Of a stretch of 14,626 bases of DNA, positions 1,976 to 14,520 are shown one piece after another (positions within the stretch are counted from its first letter, which is position 1; each line of letters starts with the position of its first letter). This DNA comes from Escherichia phage Ec1-ASingh, in sequence record PQ561396. One strand, given 5' to 3'. The position numbers and the translations under genes are program-made. The notes under the pieces are model-generated. The model saw only the letters and a list, made by a program, of their open reading frames with translations, had not been told where the DNA came from and did no database searches.

Positions 1976-2006
1976 ATTCCGTCTCTCCTCTCGTTTGTGT
2001 AAATGA

Positions 2007-2035
2007 ATAGTAGCCTATTCTATCTCAGTGTGCAA
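2007..2035 (-). promoter_or_regulatory. sigma70-like promoter (minus strand) with embedded palindromic operator GAATAG-TAGC-CTATTC (2005-2020)
   Basis: Read on the minus strand: TTGCAC (2035-2030), 17-nt spacer, TACTAT (2012-2007). The -10 hexamer lies inside one half-site of the perfect 6-4-6 palindrome. RBS and ATG at 1975 follow. Confidence 0.5.
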
Positions 2036-2056
2036 GTAAATTTTATTGGTATTTGT

Positions 2057-2074
2057 ATTGTTGCATCTCCCGCA
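2057..2074. promoter_or_regulatory. variant palindrome CAATAG-N6-CTATTG (related half-sites, different spacing)
   Basis: caatagtcgcttctattg lies between the terminator at 2111-2150 and the promoter at 2007-2035. Same AATAG/CTATT half-sites as the operator family but with a 6-nt spacer. Confidence 0.25.
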
Positions 2075-2110
2075 ATAGTCGCTTCTATTGTTGCGTTTGG
2101 TGAAATAGAA

Positions 2111-2150
2111 CAAAAATGAGAAAAATGATACGCTGCTACACAGCAGCGTA
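2111..2150 (-). terminator. rho-independent terminator for the upstream leftward operon
   Basis: 9-bp stem 2129-2137 / 2142-2150 with loop ACAC. On the minus strand it is followed by a U-rich tract (revcomp of 2111-2128 = TCATTTTTCTCATTTTTG). Confidence 0.6.
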
Positions 2151-2162
2151 AGTCACTAAGCC

Positions 2163-2178
2163 AAATAGTAACCTATTG
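2163..2178. promoter_or_regulatory. operator-family palindrome AAATAG-TAAC-CTATTG without a convincing -35
   Basis: Same 6-4-6 architecture as the promoter-embedded operators. On the minus strand it supplies TACTAT, but the -35 position reads GGTGGT. Lies at the 3' end of the 53-aa ORF, upstream of the terminator. Confidence 0.3.
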
Positions 2179-2334
2179 ACCTGTTACACCACCTGTTACA
2201 CCAGCACGAGCCAGCACACCAGCTTTCCACGCCCGCCACGCGAGACGCGTCTTAACGTTCAGGTACTCTTTCTTCGAACCCTTGTTAACCGGCAGACCCT
2301 CGACGACGGCCCACCGTTCGAATGCTTCTCTCAT
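2173..2334 (-). CDS. small ORF (53 aa); not in the ORF track
   Basis: Hand translation: ATG 2334-2332 preceded by GAGGA (7-nt spacing), stop TAG 2175-2173. Product MREAFERWAVVEGLPVNKGSKKEYLNVKTRLAWRAWKAGVLARAGVTGGVTGQ. Fills the gap between the gene at 2338 and the terminator. Confidence 0.3.
   Translation of the reverse strand: MREAFERWAVVEGLPVNKGSKKEYLNVKTRLAWRAWKAGVLARAGVTGGVTGQ
2180..2203. repeat. perfect 12-bp tandem direct repeat (cctgttacacca x2)
   Basis: Positions 2180-2191 and 2192-2203 are identical. In frame within the 53-aa minus-strand ORF, encoding GVTGGVTG. Confidence 0.6.
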
Positions 2335-2337
2335 ATA

Positions 2338-2529
2338 CTAGTCCTCATCATCTTCTAAGTCGGGGTACACTATGAAATCGCCAAGCCTTTGCAGCTCCAC
2401 ACCAGCCATAAAATAACCAAGTGCTTCGGCTCTTTCGGAATCGGTTTTAAACTCAGACAGAGGATATCTTTCGTAGAACTTGTTAATTAATAACGCCTGG
2501 TCAAACTTAGTCGCATCATAATTATTCAT
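2338..2529 (-). CDS. hypothetical protein (63 aa) with acidic C-terminal tail
   Basis: ORF track frame 2338..2577, start moved to ATG 2529-2527 (GGAG 9 nt upstream), which overlaps the stop of the upstream gene (2524-2522). C-terminus YPDLEDDED. Confidence 0.5.
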   Translation of the reverse strand: MNNYDATKFDQALLINKFYERYPLSEFKTDSERAEALGYFMAGVELQRLGDFIVYPDLEDDED

Positions 2530-2731
2530 AACTAATAACTCCGATAACTTTAGATTCCTCGCACCGGGTGCAACCATGTTCTATGCAGTAGCGCGCCTGC
2601 TTGACGCTTTCGCAACGGGTCAGAGTAACCCACCAGAAAAAGCCAACGCGAACCTGCACGGCAGGTGTAATTCGTTTCTCACCGAAGGCGGTAACCCACT
2701 CCTCGCTAACTATGCGGTATTTACTTAACAC
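2522..2731 (-). CDS. hypothetical Cys4 zinc-ribbon-like small protein (about 69 aa)
   Basis: ORF track frame 2522..2791. The longest form would overlap the upstream gene by 70 nt. GTG at 2731-2729 has GGGAGG 5 nt upstream; ATG at 2767/2764 has no RBS. C-terminal Cys spacing C-x7-C-x4-C-x2-C (TRCESVKQARYCIEHGCTRCEE). Confidence 0.4.
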   Translation of the reverse strand: MLSKYRIVSEEWVTAFGEKRITPAVQVRVGFFWWVTLTRCESVKQARYCIEHGCTRCEESKVIGVISYE

Positions 2732-2927
2732 GGCAACCTCCCTCAGAGTCGTCGGCGCGAGCATCATGATTCGATGCCGTTCGGAGCGCACGTAAAACTT
2801 TCAGCAATAGCTCACATGTCCCGGAAGAAATAGTCGGGCCGTCTAATAAAATAACTTCGTATCTGTTTACCTGGAAATGCACTTTCTCCAGTTTATGATG
2901 TTTCAGTTCTTCAAATAATTCTTCCAT
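2721..2927 (-). CDS. hypothetical protein (68 aa)
   Basis: ORF track. ATG 2927-2925 overlaps the TGA (2929-2927) of the upstream gene; AGGGG 7 nt upstream. Confidence 0.5.
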   Translation of the reverse strand: MEELFEELKHHKLEKVHFQVNRYEVILLDGPTISSGTCELLLKVLRALRTASNHDARADDSEGGCRVK

Positions 2928-3109
2928 CACTTCGCCCCTTTGAATTTAAAATTGTTGCCGATGAGTTTCATATCCTGCGCGTATAACACGGTGAGATAGG
3001 ACCCCGTTAAAGATTCAGCAAAATAGATATTATTTTCTCTATGAAATGTGAAGATAACCGCTAACTCTCCAGTCTCTAAAATTTTCACCAACTGACCCTT
3101 CTTAAACAT
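2927..3109 (-). CDS. hypothetical protein (60 aa), first gene of the second leftward operon
   Basis: ORF track frame 2927..3118 begins with GTG; ATG at 3109-3107 has AGGAG 8 nt upstream. Begins MFKKGQLVKIL. Confidence 0.5.
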   Translation of the reverse strand: MFKKGQLVKILETGELAVIFTFHRENNIYFAESLTGSYLTVLYAQDMKLIGNNFKFKGAK

Positions 3110-3143
3110 AACCCTCACTCCTCTGTCTCGTTTCGATAAGTGA

Positions 3144-3172
3144 ATAGTATCCTATTATGTTGGGGTGTGCAA
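3144..3172 (-). promoter_or_regulatory. sigma70-like promoter (minus strand) with embedded operator GAATAG-TATC-CTATTA (3142-3157)
   Basis: Minus strand: TTGCAC (3172-3167), 17-nt spacer, TACTAT (3149-3144). Identical architecture to the promoter at 2007-2035. An extra GAATAG half-site at 3175-3180. Confidence 0.5.
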
Positions 3173-3214
3173 GAGAATAGTTACGCTGCCGTTGTGATTC
3201 TTTCGTTTCTTTAA

Positions 3215-3269
3215 AGAGTACGCAACGCAGTGGGTGGGCGTCAGCCCACCCCAGCGGAGTGAAGTACTC
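3215..3269. other. nested inverted repeats in a 430-bp non-coding region: perfect 8-bp GC hairpin inside a 7-bp outer inverted repeat
   Basis: Inner GGGTGGGC (3232-3239), loop GTCA, GCCCACCC (3244-3251). Outer AGAGTAC (3215-3221) and GTACTCT (3263-3269). No U-tract on either strand, so not a canonical intrinsic terminator. Confidence 0.5.
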
Positions 3270-3528
3270 TCTACCCTGCTTACGGCAACTATAGAAACTT
3301 TTAATTATCAGTGACTTGGGTATTTAGGTAGGATTAACAATAGACTTTGGCCCTTCCGAAAGCGCCAGCGGAACTACACTCAAGTGCTAAAGCACGCGTT
3401 GCGTTCCCTGCCGCTCCGCGGTCGCTTGCTCATACTTCACAAGCTCAGGTGGAGCTTATCATATTTTTAAGTAAAAGTCAATATCAGTAGCATCTTTTGT
3501 ATCTTAGTAACTTTGTGTGATGTTTTGG

Positions 3529-3557
3529 TTGCTTTTACATTCCCGCTATCCTATACT
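3529..3557 (+). promoter_or_regulatory. candidate sigma70 promoter for the rightward AlpA-like gene; no operator palindrome
   Basis: TTGCTT (3529-3534), 17-nt spacer, TATACT (3552-3557). AGGAG at 3576-3580 and ATG at 3589 follow. Confidence 0.35.
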
Positions 3558-3588
3558 CGTTTTCACCAAACAAACAGGAGATATAAAA

Positions 3589-3771
3589 ATGCAGCATTAC
3601 ATGACACAGAATGAAGTAGCTGAACGTATCGGGGTGACACGTCAGACAATTAATAACTGGTTGCGCAGCGGTAAATTCCCAGATTGCTGTATTAAGGTTA
3701 TGGGTCGCCGTTTACCTGGGACATTTGACCGTAATAAAGTTGAGGCGTGGATTAAGGAGAACGTGAAATGA
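3589..3771 (+). CDS. AlpA/excisionase-like HTH DNA-binding regulator (60 aa)
   Basis: ORF track frame 3517..3771, start moved to ATG 3589 (AGGAG 8 nt upstream). MTQNEVAERIGVTRQTINNWLRSGKFP matches the AlpA/Xis-type helix-turn-helix pattern. Confidence 0.7.
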   Translation: MQHYMTQNEVAERIGVTRQTINNWLRSGKFPDCCIKVMGRRLPGTFDRNKVEAWIKENVK

Positions 3772-4058
3772 AAGGTGTAATTTTCCACGATAAAGAAAAT
3801 GACAGTGCTTATATGGTTTATTTAGTGCAAGGCGAGTACGCGTTGTGCTTTAACGTTTCTTGTAAGCTGGACTCTTATTCACCGTTTTGCGTTACAGACG
3901 AATTGCAGTTGATTAGTCTCCGAAGACTCAGCGCAATGACGGCTTCCATAGACGTATCTGACCACTTAACGTACGTTTATCATTATTTCGGTTATGAGTT
4001 GGTTGCGGATTATTTTGAAGAGTATAAAAATTTGCTGGGTGAGTTAGCAAACCGGTAA
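3768..4058 (+). CDS. hypothetical protein (96 aa)
   Basis: ORF track. ATGA overlap with the AlpA-like gene (ATG 3768-3770, TGA 3769-3771). Confidence 0.6.
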   Translation: MKGVIFHDKENDSAYMVYLVQGEYALCFNVSCKLDSYSPFCVTDELQLISLRRLSAMTASIDVSDHLTYVYHYFGYELVADYFEEYKNLLGELANR

Positions 4059-4063
4059 AAAGA

Positions 4064-4089
4064 AACCCCAACGCCAGAACGTCGGGGTT
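4064..4089 (+). other. imperfect 10-bp hairpin just after the stop of the 96-aa gene (weak terminator or RNA-stability element)
   Basis: AACCCCAACG (4064-4073), 6-nt loop, CGTCGGGGTT (4080-4089), one mismatch. Only UU follows on the plus strand. Confidence 0.3.
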
Positions 4090-4127
4090 AAAGTACAAAT
4101 CATCAAAGTAAGCATAAGGATTATACA

Positions 4128-4256
4128 ATGACAAAGTTAATAGTTCCACAGCTACGCCGCCAGAAACACGGCGCTGATTTCTTCGCACCGGTAAAGATGA
4201 ACCGCGCAATGCGCCGTATGCAGGAAGCCTTAGAACGTGCGGAGAAAAAGAAATGA
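4128..4256 (+). CDS. small basic ORF (42 aa); not in the ORF track
   Basis: Hand translation: ATG 4128 with AAGGA 7 nt upstream; stop TGA 4254-4256 overlaps the primase ATG at 4253 (ATGA). Product MTKLIVPQLRRQKHGADFFAPVKMNRAMRRMQEALERAEKKK. Confidence 0.35.
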   Translation: MTKLIVPQLRRQKHGADFFAPVKMNRAMRRMQEALERAEKKK

Positions 4257-6487
4257 ATATTGTTTTTGCAACGCTGCGTAACACATTCGATAAAAACCCT
4301 GTAGCACGTGAAATGCCGCTGGAGCAGTTCGTAGAGTATGTCTGCGATACATCGAAGCGTTTATCCGTGGACCCGTCATGGACTAAGGAAGAGTACGACG
4401 CCGCCAAGATTAAACAGAAAGCTATTGCACCTGTTGGTGGTCGCCGTAAAAACGCTATCCTGGAAGACAGTGTGGTTAAGTTCGACTTCGACCATCTCAA
4501 CCGTACTCAGTACCGCGACCTTACCCGCAAATTCAAGAACGCGCCATTCTTCAATATTCTGCACACAACGGCGTCGCACCAGCACGCGTGTAAAAACGGG
4601 GATTACGCCTTCCGCGTTCTGGTTCCGGCTCGCACGCCGTTTAACTCTAACGACGCGTGGATGGTGCAACGAGCTATTTGTGCAGAGTTAGAAATAGACG
4701 AAGCCTTGCGTGACCACTGCACAGAAGACGGCAACCGCCTTATCTACCTACCGCATAAAGAGTCGAAGATAACGGTTACAGAAGGTCGTGTTATCCGTGC
4801 CGAGCGGTACATCAAGAAAGCCGAAGAGATGGGGTTGTGTAAACGCGAAGCTAAGACACTTGCCGCCGATGAGCATGGGCTTAACGCTGATATAGCGCAT
4901 TTCTGCGAAGCCGAGCTTGGTCTTGACGCTTTATCTTCCGGGCGCGGGTACGAAGTGCCATGCCCTAACGAACATCTGCATACAGGCAAAGGCTCCACCA
5001 GCATCATGCTTGATGGTAAAGAAGTTCGCTTCGTGTGTCAGCACACAAACAACGGCGCTTGCACTGAGCTTAACCGCCGACAACATTTGGCCCTGCGTAT
5101 GTGCGGCCTTCCGGACGAGCTTAACGTAGACAAGCAACCTATCAGTATTAACAGCATTCGTGCGGCTCTGCCTGATTTACCAGATGAAGAGATTGAAGAA
5201 CTGCACCGCACCGAGAACGAGGATCCTGTAACTTGCAGCCTGGAAGACCTTGAAGAAGAGGACGAGTTACCAGAACCGGTAAAGGCTGATTTCGTCGTTG
5301 AAGGGTACATGCCATCAGATTGTATATGGGATATTGTCGGGGAATCTGGCACGTACAAATCATTCTATACGCTGGGGATGATGTATCTCAGCGCCGCCGG
5401 ATACCGGTTTGCGGGGGCGGACACCCAGCGTTGCCACCATTTTTATATCGACGGTGAAGGCGGTGCAGCTACACGCACACGTATTGATGCACTCGCGGCT
5501 AAATATGGCGCGGAAGGTAAAGATTATGTACATGTCATCGATATGGGAGAAGTCGGCAAACTGAAAAGCCTGATTAAGTTAATGCGCGAAACTGCTGGCG
5601 ACGAGCCAATTGGGATGGTCGCGTTCGACACCCTCAACCAGACGCTGGCCCTTACGATTGATAAGTTCGACGAGAACAGTTCCTCGACGGCAATCGGCAT
5701 GGGTAAAGTTATCGCCATCCTGAAAGAAGTACGCGATGCGACTAAAGCCGCGGTAGGCGTCGTCCACCATACACCGAAGGGTGGCAAGAAAGCCCGTGGC
5801 AGCGGCGCTCTGTATGCAGGCGTTGATGTGGAACTGACAATCGAACGTGCCACCGACCGTCAGATAAACGTATATCACTCTAAATTTAAGCACGGGCCGC
5901 AGCAGAAAACGGTTGGCATGGTGCTGGAGTCGGTACAGTTCCGTGAAGCACCACCGCCGAAAGAGTACCGCGCTGTTGAATTCCTTGGCAGCACAGAGGA
6001 ATACGGCACAATCGTAAACCTGGACCTGCCTGAGCCGCACAAGGCACTTGTGCTGATGCCGTGGGGGTTCGAACCGTTCAAGACCGACGAGGAGAAAGAG
6101 CGTGAAGAAGGGATGGCAAAGGAAGGTAAAGAAAATGTACGTAAAACCGTAGAGAACGCCGTCAACAGTTCGGAAGCCACGATACTCGCGGCGTTTGAAC
6201 TGGCGGAAGGAACCTACAACGGCAACGAAGGCATCACGGTAGCCGCAGCGAATAAGCTCGCACAGTCCGACCCTAACGCAAAGGCGTTCAACTCCAAAGA
6301 AGCCATAGAACGCGGGAAGATTAAGAAAATGGTTGAGGCCGGGTATCTTGTGCCTGGTACTGACGAAAATAATCAGATAATCCCTGGTCGCTACAGGCTT
6401 AACACCAGGATAACGGATAACAAAATTCCTAAGACAATATACGAACCGAATGAGATGCTGATAGTGACAGAGGAAGATTTGGAGTAG
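4253..6487 (+). CDS. replication protein, putative primase/helicase: N-terminal Cys/His-cluster domain, acidic linker, C-terminal RecA-like ATPase (744 aa)
   Basis: ORF track. C-terminal half has a P-loop-like GESGTYKS, Walker-B-like MVAFDT, VVHHTPKGG and RGSGALYAGVD, a pattern typical of RepA/AAA_25-type replicative ATPases. N-terminal half has CPNEHLH...CQHTNNGAC. The C-terminal assignment is stronger than the N-terminal one. Confidence 0.8.
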   Translation: MNIVFATLRNTFDKNPVAREMPLEQFVEYVCDTSKRLSVDPSWTKEEYDAAKIKQKAIAPVGGRRKNAILEDSVVKFDFDHLNRTQYRDLTRKFKNAPFFNILHTTASHQHACKNGDYAFRVLVPARTPFNSNDAWMVQRAICAELEIDEALRDHCTEDGNRLIYLPHKESKITVTEGRVIRAERYIKKAEEMGLCKREAKTLAADEHGLNADIAHFCEAELGLDALSSGRGYEVPCPNEHLHTGKGSTSIMLDGKEVRFVCQHTNNGACTELNRRQHLALRMCGLPDELNVDKQPISINSIRAALPDLPDEEIEELHRTENEDPVTCSLEDLEEEDELPEPVKADFVVEGYMPSDCIWDIVGESGTYKSFYTLGMMYLSAAGYRFAGADTQRCHHFYIDGEGGAATRTRIDALAAKYGAEGKDYVHVIDMGEVGKLKSLIKLMRETAGDEPIGMVAFDTLNQTLALTIDKFDENSSSTAIGMGKVIAILKEVRDATKAAVGVVHHTPKGGKKARGSGALYAGVDVELTIERATDRQINVYHSKFKHGPQQKTVGMVLESVQFREAPPPKEYRAVEFLGSTEEYGTIVNLDLPEPHKALVLMPWGFEPFKTDEEKEREEGMAKEGKENVRKTVENAVNSSEATILAAFELAEGTYNGNEGITVAAANKLAQSDPNAKAFNSKEAIERGKIKKMVEAGYLVPGTDENNQIIPGRYRLNTRITDNKIPKTIYEPNEMLIVTEEDLE

Positions 6488-6515
6488 GTAAAAAGAAAGG
6501 GGCGTTAAGCCCCTT
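6485..6515 (-). terminator. rho-independent terminator for the XRE repressor gene; its loop contains that gene's stop codon
   Basis: 7-bp stem 6497-6503 / 6509-6515, loop GTTAA (6504-6508) holding the TAA (revcomp of 6505-6507). U-tract on the minus strand (revcomp of 6485-6496 = TCTTTTTACCTA). No U-tract on the plus strand. Confidence 0.55.
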
Positions 6516-6720
6516 CACCGAACGCCAGCCACTTGGCGTCTACTTCCAGTACTTCCGCCAGTTTAAACAGCGTTGCCGGGCGGACGTCCTGAGTTACCCC
6601 AAGTGTCAGCTGGTTAATTGCGCCCTGGGAAACACCGGCCAGGACAGCCAGACGGCGCTGGGAGATGCCAAGTTCTTTACGGCGTTGTTCTACACGGATG
6701 CCTAGTTCAGATGGTTGCAT
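6505..6720 (-). CDS. XRE-family (Cro/CI-type) helix-turn-helix transcriptional regulator (71 aa)
   Basis: ORF track. LGISQRRLAVLAGVSQGAINQL is a textbook XRE HTH. AAGGAG 8 nt upstream of ATG 6720. Convergent with the primase gene, divergent from the rightward replication operon. Confidence 0.8.
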   Translation of the reverse strand: MQPSELGIRVEQRRKELGISQRRLAVLAGVSQGAINQLTLGVTQDVRPATLFKLAEVLEVDAKWLAFGEGA

Positions 6721-6740
6721 GTCAATTACTCCTTAGTTAG

Positions 6741-6770
6741 TTGATATGTGAATAGTACCATATTAATTAT
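6741..6770 (-). promoter_or_regulatory. operator GAATAG-TACC-ATATTA (6750-6765) over a candidate extended -10 promoter of the XRE repressor gene
   Basis: Minus strand reads TGGTACTAT (TG at 6760-6759, TACTAT at 6757-6752), about 24 nt upstream of the RBS. The -35 is poor. A plus-strand reading (TTGATA 6741-6746, 17 nt, TAATTA) is weak. Confidence 0.4.
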
Positions 6771-6784
6771 TTTAGAAAAGCCCA

Positions 6785-6813
6785 TTGACATGTGAATAGT
6801 TCGCTATTATAGT
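6785..6813 (+). promoter_or_regulatory. sigma70 promoter of the rightward replication operon with operator GAATAG-TTCG-CTATTA (6794-6809) in the spacer
   Basis: TTGACA (6785-6790), 17-nt spacer, TATAGT (6808-6813). GAGGAG at 6831-6836 and ATG at 6845 follow. Confidence 0.55.
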
Positions 6814-6844
6814 TAACCCATACCAAACGAGAGGAGAGAAACAA

Positions 6845-7366
6845 ATGTTAGAGAAATTCTTAGTATTACTGGAACGTTTCGTAGTTGCACATGAACTGAT
6901 TGCTGCGAACAGTGTGAAACCACAAAACAGCAAATCAGTAGGTGAATTAACGGTTGACGTCGCGGTAACGGGGGTAGAAACAGTTAAAAAAGAACTGGCT
7001 AAAGCACTTGAAGAAGTCGAGAAGGCGAAAGAAATCCCGGTGGAAGGCGAAGACATCGTTGACACTAAACCGGCAGAAGAAGAGAAGCCGAAACGCAAGC
7101 CGCGGAAAGCTAAAGTAGAGGAACCTTCGCCAGAGCCGGAAGAAGAGAAAGAAGAAGTCGATTATAAGTCTCTGCGCGACCAGATTCAGGCTATCGACGA
7201 TGCAATTAACGAAGGTCCGAGCGATGCTGCGTGTGATGACTCCGATGAACTGCTGGAAGAGTTCACCGGTAAGAAGATGAAGATTGCCGCAATTAAAGAC
7301 GAAGACCTGGCCGAGTACCTGGAACGCCTGACGGCAATCAAGAACAAGTATTTCGAAGAAGAATAA
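6845..7366 (+). CDS. highly acidic, low-complexity protein (173 aa), first gene of the rightward operon
   Basis: ORF track. Strong RBS. Glu/Asp-rich throughout with interspersed Lys (for example PAEEEKPKRKPRKAKVEEPSPEPEEEKEEVDY and ACDDSDELLEEF). Function unknown. Confidence 0.7.
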   Translation: MLEKFLVLLERFVVAHELIAANSVKPQNSKSVGELTVDVAVTGVETVKKELAKALEEVEKAKEIPVEGEDIVDTKPAEEEKPKRKPRKAKVEEPSPEPEEEKEEVDYKSLRDQIQAIDDAINEGPSDAACDDSDELLEEFTGKKMKIAAIKDEDLAEYLERLTAIKNKYFEEE

Positions 7367-7372
7367 CTATCT

Positions 7373-7393
7373 GGCGGCCTTCGGGCCGCTTTA
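7373..7393 (+). terminator. hairpin with UUCG tetraloop plus a short U-tract (weak or partial intrinsic terminator)
   Basis: Stem GCGGCC (7374-7379) / GGCCGC (7384-7389), loop TTCG, then TTTA. Confidence 0.4.
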
Positions 7394-7409
7394 ACTGAGG
7401 GTCGTAATT

Positions 7410-7682
7410 ATGATTTACCAACTCTACCGCGCCGTTGACAGGCGGGATAACACAGAGGCGTTGTGGCTGTTGCGTGCGCCGTCAGGTGCGCACCAGATGG
7501 AAGAGATGGCGTACTTAGGCAAAGTACCACGGCCTAAAGATATAGGCCGTCACGTGTCGCAGATTAAGCGCACGACTTTCGCCAAACCTGATTTTTATGT
7601 CTTCGAGTCGATGTATGGGTGGGCCATGCACTGCCAGCACCAGACCAGGCATTTAATTGACCAGTGGGAGAACAGAGTATGA
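7410..7682 (+). CDS. hypothetical protein (90 aa)
   Basis: ORF track. GAGGG 9 nt upstream of ATG 7410. Stop TGA 7680-7682 overlaps the ATG (7679) of the nuclease gene. Confidence 0.6.
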   Translation: MIYQLYRAVDRRDNTEALWLLRAPSGAHQMEEMAYLGKVPRPKDIGRHVSQIKRTTFAKPDFYVFESMYGWAMHCQHQTRHLIDQWENRV

Positions 7683-8920
7683 TTTTAAAGGAACGCGGCG
7701 GCAATAACGATGTGCACGCCTTACTGTCGCCGTCAGGTGCTAAAAAGTGGTTAACCTGCGCCGCATCGCTGGCCTGTGAAAAAGATATCCCTAACACGTC
7801 CGGTAAAGCCGCGGTATTAGGTACAGCCATGCACACCATAGCAGAGGTCCATCTAAATCAGTACATCAGAGGCACTGCGCTGCCGTTAGAGCGCGAAGTT
7901 GGCGCTTATGTGCTGGATGAAGGCAAAGGCCAGATTAAGGCACTAATTAGCCCGATGAAAGGCGCTGTCCTGATTACGGCTGACATGATTGAGCAGGTGC
8001 GCAAGTACACCGACTACTGCAAAGCTGTTATCGATGTAGCGACTTACGCCAAGCTGGAAATGCGTGTCAATCTTACTGAGGTATTGCATCCGGGTTACGA
8101 AGGTGTCGAGACGTTCGGAACCGCTGACCTTGTTGCCGTTCAGGAACTGGCTAACACCGACGAGCACATGCTAATTATCGGTGACCTTAAAACCGGGCGA
8201 CATCGTGTCGAAGCGAAAGAAAACAAGCAGCTTATGCTTTACGCTCTCGGTGTTTATCGCCGACTCAAGAGACGTTATAACATCACAGTAGTGCGCCTGG
8301 TCATCTTCCAGCCGTACGCGGGAGGTGCGGCAGAGTGGGACATCTCGGTCGAAGGTCTGGAACTGTTCGCTAAGTTCGCACAGAAACGTGCCCTGTTAGC
8401 GTTAGATGCATATTTCCGCGGTAAGAAGAACCTGAAAGCGTCGGACTTCAGGCCGTCGGTCGATGGTTGCCAGTGGTGCCGGTTCTCAGAACAGTGCGCC
8501 GCGCGTACAAAAACCGTTAACTCTGTACTGGCGGAAGGACTTGAAGACGACTTTGTGCTAGAAATGACGCCGGAGCAACTCGTAGTTGAGTATGAGAAGT
8601 TGCCGCTGTTGCGCCAGCACATCGACAAGGTTGAGAAAGCGATGGCCGCCGCATTGCATTCTGGTAAGAAAGTTCCTGGGTACAAGCTGGTTGAAGGTAA
8701 GACGGGCAATCGTGCGTGGAAAGACGCGGAGAAAGTAACAGAACTCTACGGCGACAAGCTGACTAAAGAAGTGCTCATGACGCCAACCGAAGCTGTTAAA
8801 GTGATACCGGAAGAAGAACTGAAAGACTTCATCGCACGTAAGCCAGGTGCCCCATGCATCGCAAAGGCAGACGACAAACGGCCTGAGTGGAATCAGGTTA
8901 GTGAAGAAGATTTGGGATAA
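7679..8920 (+). CDS. PD-(D/E)XK nuclease with a Cas4/AddB-like four-Cys (Fe-S) cluster (413 aa)
   Basis: ORF track frame 7664..8920, start moved to ATG 7679 (ATGA coupling). N-terminal Cys in SPSGAKKWLTC, nuclease core ADLVAV...IIGDLKTG...QLMLYALG, C-terminal CQWCRFSEQC (C-x2-C-x5-C). Confidence 0.75.
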   Translation: MILKERGGNNDVHALLSPSGAKKWLTCAASLACEKDIPNTSGKAAVLGTAMHTIAEVHLNQYIRGTALPLEREVGAYVLDEGKGQIKALISPMKGAVLITADMIEQVRKYTDYCKAVIDVATYAKLEMRVNLTEVLHPGYEGVETFGTADLVAVQELANTDEHMLIIGDLKTGRHRVEAKENKQLMLYALGVYRRLKRRYNITVVRLVIFQPYAGGAAEWDISVEGLELFAKFAQKRALLALDAYFRGKKNLKASDFRPSVDGCQWCRFSEQCAARTKTVNSVLAEGLEDDFVLEMTPEQLVVEYEKLPLLRQHIDKVEKAMAAALHSGKKVPGYKLVEGKTGNRAWKDAEKVTELYGDKLTKEVLMTPTEAVKVIPEEELKDFIARKPGAPCIAKADDKRPEWNQVSEEDLG

Positions 8921-8924
8921 AGTG

Positions 8925-8953
8925 TTGACACCTGAATAGCGAACTATTATAGT
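8925..8953 (+). promoter_or_regulatory. sigma70 promoter with operator GAATAG-CGAA-CTATTA (8934-8949) in the spacer
   Basis: TGTTGACA (-35 at 8925-8930), 17-nt spacer, TATAGT (8948-8953). Same architecture as 6785-6813. Drives the SSB-like and polymerase genes. Confidence 0.55.
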
Positions 8954-9016
8954 TAAATCACTGGCCGGGCAGTTCCCGGAGTAAACTTAAAATCTAAACT
9001 TAATGAGGGCTGAACT

Positions 9017-12122: not shown

Positions 12123-12414
12123 GGGGCGCGTCCAAAAATACGCAAAAGAGCAATTCGAGGCCATTGGTGGCCTCGTTCGTAAACTTTCCTACGAAAATAG
12201 AGCGGGCGCTCCTGACCTGCTGGTAATTCTCCCTGGCGGCATAGTCTGGTTCGTCGAGGTTAAGAAAGACGAAAACACGAAGCCAGACCCACACCAGCTA
12301 CGGGAGCACGAGCGGATGCGTAAACGGGGCGCAAATGTTTTTGTCGTTGGCTCTATAAAACAGGTTGACGACCTAATAGAGGGCTATTATAGTAGCCACA
12401 CACCAACAATATAA
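12109..12414 (+). CDS. VRR-NUC domain nuclease (101 aa)
   Basis: ORF track. GAGGGG 7 nt upstream. PD-(D/E)XK core GAPDLLVILPGGIVWFVEVKK with downstream Gln (PHQLREHE), the pattern of VRR-NUC proteins. Confidence 0.75.
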   Translation: MSTPEGRVQKYAKEQFEAIGGLVRKLSYENRAGAPDLLVILPGGIVWFVEVKKDENTKPDPHQLREHERMRKRGANVFVVGSIKQVDDLIEGYYSSHTPTI

Positions 12415-12425
12415 GGAATTGAGAA

Positions 12426-12617
12426 ATGAAACACGAATACGACCGCAAACCAGCACGTGACATCGTACCAGGCGACATGATTTTCAACGTTAAGACACGT
12501 CGCCCCGTTGCCGTTGATACGGTGTTCGTTGAGTCGAACGGTAAACTGGTCATCGAAGATGTAACAGGCAATGTTACAGCGTTCGGGCGTAAAGAGTTAG
12601 TTCTGGTGCTGAAATGA
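12426..12617 (+). CDS. hypothetical protein (63 aa)
   Basis: ORF track. AAGGA 8 nt upstream. Stop TGA overlaps the ATG of the helicase gene (12614). Confidence 0.6.
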   Translation: MKHEYDRKPARDIVPGDMIFNVKTRRPVAVDTVFVESNGKLVIEDVTGNVTAFGRKELVLVLK

Positions 12618-14038
12618 GTAAGTTTCAAAGGCGCGAATACCAGAAGCTCATGACTTCGTTCATGTTGCAACACCCGCGCTGTAATATCTGGTGCGGTATG
12701 GGCGGCGGCAAGACCTCGTCGACGTTGTGGGTTCTCAATCGACTGTTCCGTAATGGGCAACTTAATGACGACGACCGAGTGTTAATTCTGGCTCCTTTAC
12801 GTGTTGCGTCAGGTACGTGGCCCGCGGAACAGGCACGTTGGAACTTCCCTTGTCTGCGCGTCGTAGATGCGACCGGTTCGGAGAAGCGCCGCATCGCGGC
12901 GCTGGAGTCTGACGCTAACGTGGTGTGCACGAACTACGAAGTTATCGAGTGGCTGATTGACTACTACGGCAAAGACGACTGGCCTTTTACTGTTATCGTT
13001 GCCGATGAGAGTACGAAGCTAAAATCTTTCCGCAGCCGTTCAGGCGGTAGTAAGAGAGCAAAGGCGCTTAGTAAAGTGGCGTTCGGTAAGGTTAAGCGTT
13101 TCATTAACCTTACGGGAACACCGTCACCGAACGGCCTCAAAGACTTATGGGGGCAGAACTGGTTTATCGACGCTGGCGAGCGCCTGGGGTCTTCATATAC
13201 AGCATTCACCGACCGCTGGTTTAACTCGGTACAGAAAGGCAAATCGGCTATGGCGCGCGAATACCACGCCCGCCCTGGCGCGGATAATGAAATTCACCAG
13301 AAGATGAAGGACATTAGTCTCACGATTGACGCTGCCGAGTGGTTCGGTTGTGAAGCGCCGATTATCGTCCCTGTTGAAATCGACCTGCCGAAGAAAGCGC
13401 GTCAGGCGTACCTAGATATGGAGGAAAAATTATTCGCGGAACTGGAAAGCGGCGAAGTTGAAGCGGCTAACGCAGCGGCGAAGACATCGAAGTGTCTGCA
13501 GATCGCATCCGGTGCCGTGTATGTGTCAGGGCCGGACGGAGAAGCAACCAAAGACTGGGAGAAAGTTCACGACACGAAACTGGATGCGCTGGAGTCCATT
13601 GTGGAGGAGTTACAGGGCGCACCGTTACTGGTGGCCTATCAGTTCAAGCACGAACTGGAGCGCATCCTTAAGCGATTCCCGCAGGCGCAGGCGTTTGCCA
13701 AAGGCGCTAAGGGTAATAAGCAGATGGAAGCGTGGAACCGTGGTGAAATACCTATGCTCCTGCTACACCCAGCCTCCGCAGGCCACGGGCTGTCGCTACA
13801 ACACGGCGGGCACCACATGGCCTTTATGAGTCAGGGGTGGAACCTAGAACATTATCTGCAGGTTATCGAGCGTATAGGTCCGGTAAGGCAGATGCAGTCC
13901 GGATACAAACGGTCTGTATTCATTTATCAAATAATAGCCCGAGATACTCTTGATGAAGTTGTCGCCGCGCGTACAGACGAGAAAAGGTCTGTACAGGACG
14001 AACTACTTAATTATATGAAGAGAAGGAGTAAGAAATGA
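12614..14038 (+). CDS. SNF2-family (DEAD-like) helicase / ATPase (474 aa)
   Basis: ORF track. Motif I GMGGGKT, Ia LILAPLRV, II VIVADESTKLK, III INLTGTP, V HPASAGHGLSLQ, VI QVIERIGPVRQ. Immediately follows the VRR-NUC gene, a common pairing. Confidence 0.8.
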   Translation: MSKFQRREYQKLMTSFMLQHPRCNIWCGMGGGKTSSTLWVLNRLFRNGQLNDDDRVLILAPLRVASGTWPAEQARWNFPCLRVVDATGSEKRRIAALESDANVVCTNYEVIEWLIDYYGKDDWPFTVIVADESTKLKSFRSRSGGSKRAKALSKVAFGKVKRFINLTGTPSPNGLKDLWGQNWFIDAGERLGSSYTAFTDRWFNSVQKGKSAMAREYHARPGADNEIHQKMKDISLTIDAAEWFGCEAPIIVPVEIDLPKKARQAYLDMEEKLFAELESGEVEAANAAAKTSKCLQIASGAVYVSGPDGEATKDWEKVHDTKLDALESIVEELQGAPLLVAYQFKHELERILKRFPQAQAFAKGAKGNKQMEAWNRGEIPMLLLHPASAGHGLSLQHGGHHMAFMSQGWNLEHYLQVIERIGPVRQMQSGYKRSVFIYQIIARDTLDEVVAARTDEKRSVQDELLNYMKRRSKK

Positions 14039-14520
14039 GCAAGGTATCTTACGACCCTGAAACCGGTATTTTCACATGGGTTGAAACAAAACGTAGGGGT
14101 TTTATTGGAAAGAAAGCAGGATGTTTTTGTCCGCGGGACGGGTACATTCGTATCCGAATAAACGGAAAACTAGAACTAGCACATCGGTTAGCATGGGATA
14201 TCTGCAATCCCGATAACCCACTTACACCACAGGAACAGATAGACCACATCAATCATATTCGAACTGATAACCGAATATGCAACCTACGGAAAGTTACCAA
14301 CACTGAAAATAGCCGCAACGCATCAATAGGGGTAAACAATACTAGTGGCGCTCTTGGTGTATGGCGGGAAAAGAGAAGAAACAAATGGGTAGCAGAGATA
14401 AAGGTAGACAGACGAAAAATACATCTAGGCCAGTTTGATGATTTTGACGAAGCGGTTGCCGCGCGTAAAGCCGCGGAAGCTGCTTACGGATTTCATGAAA
14501 ACCACGGAGAAACTGCGTGA
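14035..14520 (+). CDS. freestanding HNH endonuclease with C-terminal AP2 DNA-binding domain, homing-endonuclease-like (161 aa)
   Basis: ORF track. ATGA overlap with the helicase gene. HNH core LAHRLAW...IDHINHIRTDNRICNLRKVTNTENSRN. AP2-like GVWREKRRNKWVAEIKVDRRKIHLGQFDDFDEAVAARKAAEAAY. Confidence 0.8.
   Translation: MSKVSYDPETGIFTWVETKRRGFIGKKAGCFCPRDGYIRIRINGKLELAHRLAWDICNPDNPLTPQEQIDHINHIRTDNRICNLRKVTNTENSRNASIGVNNTSGALGVWREKRRNKWVAEIKVDRRKIHLGQFDDFDEAVAARKAAEAAYGFHENHGETA

Follow-up and report, generated by a model that had tools for sequence, protein, structure and literature searches.

In a 14,626-nt window from Escherichia phage Ec1-ASingh (sequence record PQ561396; positions are counted from the first letter of the window), a spaced inverted repeat, AATAG-N4-CTATT, was found within the core elements of six sigma70 promoters, on both strands and in two fixed registers. 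It is likely bound by a 71-amino-acid (71-aa) XRE/HTH_3 protein encoded at 6505–6720. All calls rest on sequence analysis, and all tests were conducted in silico. The reading we favour, with a probability of about 0.7, is that this protein acts on the dyads as a dimer of the phage 434 Cro type and that protein and sites together make up a Cro-only negative-feedback circuit. The repeat itself has already been published; its reading as an operator and its link to the XRE gene are what is added here.

Dyads in sigma70 promoters of the window and its relatives

Seven copies of (G/T)AATAG-N4-CTATT(C/A) were present in the window against a chance expectation of ~ 0.2, and a search for GAATAGNNNNCTATT with at most one mismatch returned 13 strand-matches (0.17 expected, a number reached in 0 of 200 shuffles). 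A spaced-dyad search that did not start from any given motif ranked AATAG-N4-CTATT first in the window (six exact copies). The same dyad came first in the complete Kagunavirus fPoEco01 (seven copies), and the top dyad of Jerseyvirus SETP13 was TAATAG-N4-CTATTA (six copies), with a shuffle expectation of 0.0–0.03 for the top dyads of the three sequences. The initial annotation of this stretch had listed six 16-bp copies, all of which are placed correctly (Table 1, O-L1 to O-R2), and its total was too low, a seventh site, TAATAGAGGGCTATTA at 12374–12389, having been overlooked. A variant with an N6 spacer, which it had put at 2057–2074, actually lies at 2073–2090.

Five dyad-bearing promoters had been proposed; their placement was borne out, and the number rises to six. 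An independent sigma70 consensus scan upheld the claim that the dyad fills the 17-nt spacer of the rightward promoters, and also ranked the three rightward dyad promoters, P_R1 and P_R2 (11 of 12 positions each) and P_R3 (10 of 12), above all other sigma70 matches in the window. The leftward TTGCAC-17-TACTAT promoters match the consensus at ~ 7 of 12 positions, under the scan threshold. The promoter at 3529–3557 had been described as lacking the site; no dyad was indeed found there within two mismatches, and this promoter stands outside the regulon.

With 88–91% identity, the window corresponds to the early/replication region of Escherichia phages in the genus Kagunavirus (Guernseyvirinae), which are described as virulent; several hundred Salmonella Jerseyviruses also match it, more weakly. 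In genome papers, Kagunavirus-type small siphoviruses are reported to be free of lysogeny genes (PMC9825357). When 38 Kagunavirus and 12 Jerseyvirus loci were pooled, the spacer register, TTGAC-N5-AATAG-N4-CTATTATAGT, was recovered in 45 Kagunavirus and 13 Jerseyvirus distinct sequences. The register in which a half-site supplies the -10 hexamer TACTAT of leftward promoters, as had been suggested, also held up: CTTGCACAC-N8-AATAGG-N-TACTATTCA recurred in 27 distinct Kagunavirus and six Jerseyvirus sequences. Half-sites were 93–100% conserved in both registers and no base of the central N4 exceeded 55%, a pattern of conserved half-sites and variable centre that was repeated in the footprints of individual sites. 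A symmetric element that is used in either orientation, whose two registers differ by 6 bp and whose centre is free, points to the operator of a dimeric helix-turn-helix (HTH) protein rather than to a polymerase recognition element.

A genome-wide scan for intergenic confinement, a check put forward in the initial annotation, was favourable: of the 11 core sites in L001, a complete relative, nine fell in the non-coding 6.7% of the genome (P = 1.3e-9), and the remaining two matches were located at gene edges. The view that one dimeric DNA-binding protein acts on promoter operators was supported by every test run: the dyad is symmetric, it occurs on both strands in two fixed registers, it is confined genome-wide to intergenic promoter positions in this complete relative, and its conserved half-sites enclose a free N4. 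Its scope had been set too narrowly as the 'early programme'. Outside the region equivalent to the window, sites in relatives head two leftward gene islands within the structural module, and in complete relatives a degenerate dyad overlaps the -35 of the sole good sigma70 match preceding the terminase block, so that the regulon takes in essentially all recognisable sigma70 promoters and not the early ones alone. The dyad-free exceptions are the HTH_17/primase promoter (3529–3557) and the leader promoters described below.

In L001, the 5' part of PE1_023 as annotated (14806–15135, 'superinfection immunity protein') encloses a leftward promoter with a dyad. The homologue in SETP13 is annotated as much shorter, with the dyad intergenic, and the start codon of PE1_023 is probably annotated too far upstream.

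A 434 Cro-like protein as candidate binder

The initial annotation had left the regulator open between the XRE protein, an 'AlpA-like' protein and something outside the window; the choice can be narrowed to the XRE protein as the likely binder, a 434 Cro homologue kept in every lineage examined that has the system. It is a small single-domain protein in which Pfam HTH_3 covers residues 11–65 of 71 (E = 1.6e-12). Its best match in PDB was Cro of phage 434, also 71 aa long (E = 5.2e-7, residues 6–68 versus 4–64), and the next solved homologues were 434 repressor (E = 1.2e-5) and P22 C2 (E = 6.5e-3). A homologue was found in all seven representative genomes searched (L001–L006 and the window). 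Two dyads lie within 100 bp upstream of the XRE gene, which always adjoins two operators, spaced by 44/45, 55 or 64/65 bp depending on lineage; these steps of one helical turn, in three values only, hint at a phasing constraint.

434 Cro binds as a dimer to 14-bp ACAA-N6-TTGT operators, and the inner 14 bp of the dyad share this geometry. The two systems have in common a 71-aa single-domain HTH_3 protein, a 14-bp dyad with 5-bp half-sites around a central 4 bp (AATAG-N4-CTATT here versus ACAAG-N4-CTTGT in 434, where the half-sites are contacted and the centre is not), operators overlapping core promoters, and a Cro-type gene located by a divergent promoter pair and auto-repressed, the last being a prediction in the present case. 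They differ in half-site positions 2–3, which read AT here and CA in 434, and in the residue equivalent to Gln29, which is Gly or Ser here in an alignment-based comparison. Furthermore, single operators are spread over 8–10 promoters genome-wide, whereas 434 has two tripartite clusters, and the phage here is virulent, without an annotated CI partner or integrase: neither a CI-type repressor with a C-terminal oligomerisation/cleavage domain nor an integrase was found among the annotated genes of L001 (77) and SETP13 (69). The region also departs from the lambdoid CI/Cro arrangement in having no tripartite operators, only two single ones 44 bp apart beside the XRE gene. While a Cro of the 434/lambda type with its operator is a system of a well-known kind, its occurrence in a virulent phage with no CI partner and with dispersed single operators is unusual.

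One repressor serving many scattered operators is known from P1 C1, from mycobacteriophage L5 gp71 with its 'stoperators' and from phiC31 with its conserved inverted repeats. All three are immunity repressors from temperate phages; in P1 and L5 the sites lack symmetry, and the L5 stoperators act inside transcription units. The present system resembles these in having many operators at or near promoters, by which the regulon can be defined from the sequence. It differs in the symmetry of its sites, in their placement within core promoters and in belonging to a phage without a lysogeny module.

Both the dyad and the XRE recognition helix varied among Guernseyvirinae-like lineages. Kagunavirus combines helix SQGAINQ with (G/T)AATAG, Jerseyvirus SQSLITH with TAATAG, Pantoea phage AH01 TQGGIGH with TAATAC-N4-GTATTA (eight sites, in equivalent promoters), and Cornellvirus TQSAISH with TATTA-N6-TAATA and hybrids. 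Orthologous promoters hold their -35/-10 scaffold and a hairpin in the 5' untranslated region (5' UTR), and it is the spacer dyad that changes. A 434-like XRE class whose helix reads KQQTIQQ served as positive control and carried TACAA-N6-TTGTA 36 bp upstream of its own gene.

Table 1 Dyads, promoters and associated features of the analysed window
Feature	Position	Strand	Details
O-L1 GAATAGTAGCCTATTC, perfect 16-bp palindrome	2005–2020		Half-site forms -10 TACTAT of P_L1; conserved in relatives
P_L1 TTGCAC-17-TACTAT	2007–2035	-	-35 at 2035–2030, -10 at 2012–2007; heads small-gene operon 1975–240
N6 variant CAATAG-TCGCTT-CTATTG	2073–2090		No more conserved than its flanks
Intrinsic terminator of P_L2 operon	2129–2150	-	9-bp stem, then T-run
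Non-promoter dyad AAATAGTAACCTATTG	2163–2178		Between stop codon of open reading frame (ORF) 2173–2334 and terminator 2129–2150
O-L2 GAATAGTATCCTATTA	3142–3157		Overlaps -10 of P_L2
P_L2 TTGCAC-17-TACTAT	3144–3172	-	Heads leftward operon 3118–2173
Dyad-free promoter TTGCTT-17-TATACT	3529–3557	+	HTH_17 and primase-helicase operon
XRE/HTH_3 protein, 71 aa, proposed repressor	6505–6720	-	Pfam HTH_3 and 434 Cro homology
O1 GAATAGTACCATATTA, one core mismatch, weakest site	6750–6765		Over -10 TACTAT of the XRE gene's promoter
XRE promoter region (P_XRE)	6752–6796	-	CTTTTC-17-TACTAT (6780–6752) or TTCACA-16-TAAAAT (6796–6769)
O2 GAATAGTTCGCTATTA	6794–6809		In spacer of P_R1; 44 bp from O1, centre-to-centre
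P_R1 TTGACA-17-TATAGT, 11/12	6785–6813	+	Heads genes 6845–8920 (173-aa protein, DUF2800 nuclease)
O-R2 GAATAGCGAACTATTA	8934–8949		In spacer of P_R2
P_R2 TTGACA-17-TATAGT, 11/12	8925–8953	+	Heads genes for Enc34-type single-stranded DNA (ssDNA)-binding protein and DNA polymerase
O-R3 TAATAGAGGGCTATTA	12374–12389		In spacer of P_R3
P_R3 TTGACG-17-TATAGT, 10/12	12365–12393	+	Inside 3' end of VRR-NUC ORF; heads 12426–14520 (helicase, HNH)

Proposed circuit and alternative explanations

In the proposed circuit, an XRE dimer would occupy a 14–16 bp dyad with one recognition helix per AATAG half-site, the half-site centres being 10 bp apart. As the dyad lies either in the -35/-10 spacer (P_R1, P_R2, P_R3) or over the -10 (P_L1, P_L2, P_XRE), occupancy would exclude host RNA polymerase, and the dimer would occlude it in this way at all dyad promoters. 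With the repressor absent at infection, all strong dyad-bearing sigma70 promoters would fire, and accumulating XRE protein would then turn the dyad promoters down together. It would limit its own synthesis via O1, the weakest operator, and the circuit would work without a CI partner. The counterpart of O1 in Jerseyvirus is likewise degenerate; the -35 element CTTTTC is weak, and both candidate XRE promoters overlap an operator.

A number of observations weigh against this circuit. RNA sequencing (RNA-seq) of Kagunavirus K1B4 (PMC12645636) placed the XRE gene in the 'middle' class, the HTH_17 gene in the 'early' class, and the DNA polymerase and superinfection immunity genes, which are dyad-controlled, in the 'late' class. 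These assignments do not fit a simple early shut-off, albeit with sampling from 5 to 120 min sorted into three bins, which is too coarse to weigh heavily on timing. Given that one dyad operon appears to run into the lysis genes and a dyad-like -35 site precedes the terminase block, the circuit may throttle all transcription instead of separating early from late. No residue-to-base rule emerged when XRE helices were compared with half-sites across seven Guernseyvirinae-like classes. Clean dyads were seen in only ~ 4 lineages, the sites of Cornellvirus and of classes 6–8 being hybrid or messy, so that the comparison of helix and dyad between lineages stays qualitative. Finally, a 173-aa protein encoded divergently from the XRE protein is also conserved in all lineages and is a candidate binder in its own right.

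This last point opens an alternative in which the 173-aa protein, or another phage protein found throughout the subfamily, binds the dyad and the XRE protein has some other target. The 173-aa protein adjoins operators and belongs to phrog_3127, with no Pfam match and no assigned function, and Pfam revealed no recognisable DNA-binding domain in it; it is the XRE protein that has the right fold, the right size and a homologue with matching operator geometry. We consider this alternative improbable.

A somewhat smaller chance still is given to the 60-aa protein encoded at 3589–3771, acting either as a repressor or as a MerR-like spacer factor. The label 'AlpA-like' did not survive: Phage_AlpA was not among the 14 Pfam families matched at E ≤ 0.01, the best being HTH_17 (E = 1.6e-8), and no significant solved homologue of the protein was found. 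MerR-type regulators bind dyads within promoter spacers. An HTH is present in the protein and its gene's promoter has no dyad; made from a dyad-free promoter, the protein could act first, and its gene was classed 'early' in the K1B4 data (PMC12645636). However, among the lineages compared the protein was found in Kagunavirus and Jerseyvirus only, and its gene is absent from Cornellvirus, AH01 and classes 6–8 (three metagenomic lineages), which keep dyads in orthologous promoters. The dyad spacers measure the optimal 17 bp, as opposed to 19–20 bp in MerR targets, the second register, over the -10, does not suit a MerR-like spacer mechanism, and 60 aa leave no space for a MerR coiled-coil dimeriser.

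It is very unlikely that a host transcription factor binds the dyad or that the dyad acts as a nucleic-acid hairpin. Host RNA polymerase is used by these phages, but Jerseyvirus and Cornellvirus share the host species Salmonella enterica and have unlike dyads, which argues against a host factor. The palindromic sites can fold small hairpins; these are weak (-1.5 to -3.2 kcal/mol as ssDNA) and, given the promoter geometry, would stop short of the predicted transcription start, at about -11 or -5. No conservation was seen in the central loop bases, nor any stem-compensating changes. A hairpin role was rejected on stability and position.

The published label, a promoter for a phage-encoded or phage-modified RNA polymerase, is largely refuted by gene content and retains hardly any probability: no RNA polymerase or sigma gene is annotated in the complete relatives L001 (77 genes) and SETP13 (69 genes), and none of the unassigned ORFs of L001 is big enough for an RNA polymerase, which argues that the label is wrong. 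It goes back to PHIRE searches, which detect merely repeated words. In fBC-Eco01 the same sequence as the dyad was found in seven copies (consensus tgAATAGTa-ccTATTat-T) and read as phage-RNA-polymerase promoters (PMC9825357); for Golestan only a number is given, seven PHIRE promoters (PMC7203180). The motif does stand at transcription-unit starts, as a promoter would, but it is embedded there in near-consensus sigma70 promoters and is a palindrome, placed in both orientations and in two registers with a variable centre. These papers mention neither the dyad symmetry nor the sigma70 surroundings, and do not connect the motif with the XRE gene. In a literature search of incomplete coverage, we found no report calling the repeat an operator or tying it to the XRE gene, and nothing relevant on Jersey-like promoters or Cro-like operators of virulent phages; a preprint on ApeA touches on the subfamily only briefly.

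The operator reading, which remains a prediction, corrects a polymerase-promoter annotation carried across Kagunavirus and Jerseyvirus genome papers and, from sequence, defines a regulon (8–10 promoters in each genome) and names a candidate for its regulator. Hundreds of phage-therapy and biocontrol isolates belong to the subfamily, which has been put forward as a synthetic-biology chassis (BASEL paper). A Cro-only circuit with natural operator variants (AATAG, AATAC, ATTAG) and matched helices could yield orthogonal repressor-promoter pairs, and offers a natural test case for 434-type recognition rules. In safety screens, finding an 'XRE/repressor' gene in one of these phages is not necessarily a sign of temperate behaviour.

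Dyad-free leader element and further features of the window

Within the 470-bp non-coding gap at 3119–3588, an extended -10 promoter without a dyad, TTGACT-N14-TG-N-TAAGCT (3481–3453), stands on the minus strand at the head of a leader element (3225–3481, minus strand) with ~ 230 conserved nt and a closing GC-rich hairpin. A paralogue was located at 5687–5915 in L001 and 5995–6225 in L002, two copies being present per Kagunavirus genome. Copy B (~ 200 nt) lies upstream of the spanin/scaffold/capsid block, and the terminator-like hairpin at its end immediately precedes the first late gene. Abutting the -35 of this capsid-proximal leader promoter (L001 5672–5692, L002 5980–6000), AACTATTC is joined directly to GAATAGTT, forming a perfect 16-bp palindrome of operator half-sites that face outward with no spacer.

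From 17 leader sequences, which represent few independent lineages, RNAalifold predicted that the first ~ 105 nt fold into a multibranched 5' domain. It includes three compensatory pairs, of which one is seen as C-G, A-U and U-A. In this structure 99% of cells pair, versus 37–48% with slid partners, and no double changes occurred in the slid controls. With a covariance model, copies of the element turned up only in Kagunavirus (two) and Jerseyvirus (one), a phyletic distribution it shares with the HTH_17 gene. No Rfam match was obtained, either for the whole window at the gathering threshold or for 3100–3600 at E ≤ 1. One capsid-proximal leader, L132_B, has a 5' domain identical to that of the copy-A variant from a different contig, L097, and a copy-B 3' part, which suggests gene conversion between paralogous leaders.

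The structural module of L001 (1–16000) contained 29 terminator-like hairpins, where shuffles gave 16.8 ± 4.5, and several of the 29 lie between late genes on the coding strand. With such an excess, read-through or antitermination would be needed in late transcription. The element may serve as a leader for late transcription, which would make it comparable to lambda PR'-6S RNA-tR' with Q or to HK022 put RNA, or else as a small RNA. We put forward only tentatively, as a doubtful extension, a two-layer Guernseyvirinae programme, in which a Cro-only auto-repressor, with its operator in essentially every sigma70 promoter in one of three registers (spacer, -10, -35), would be joined by a dyad-free late leader and HTH_17- or RNA-mediated terminator read-through.

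Plus-strand genes of the window encode the HTH_17 protein, a primase-helicase, the 173-aa protein, a DUF2800 nuclease, an Enc34-type ssDNA-binding protein, DNA polymerase A, a VRR-NUC protein and a helicase; the minus strand carries two operons of small function-unassigned genes and the gene for the 71-aa HTH_3 protein. The dyad copy at 2163–2178, outside any promoter and poorly conserved among relatives, is possibly an auxiliary site or a relic. The N6 variant at 2073–2090 is probably not an operator for a rigid dimer; it lies in the gap between the terminator and P_L1, flanked by direct repeats of TATTGTTGC (2055–2063 and 2085–2093).

The P_L1 operon appears to continue into the holin gene, no terminator having been detected between them. 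A palindrome, TAGGA-ATTA-TCCTA, was noted at 229–246, between the last small leftward gene (240–680) and the holin-like ORF (start near 195); as neither a terminator nor a promoter was recognised in this short gap, the lysis genes may share a transcript with this dyad-controlled operon.

The 5' UTR of the ssDNA-binding-protein gene (8954–9016) contains a conserved hairpin, CCGGGCAGTTCCCGG, with CACTGGCC ahead of it. This hairpin is kept from Kagunavirus to Cornellvirus and AH01 while the promoter dyad changes, and may be a translational or RNA-stability element.

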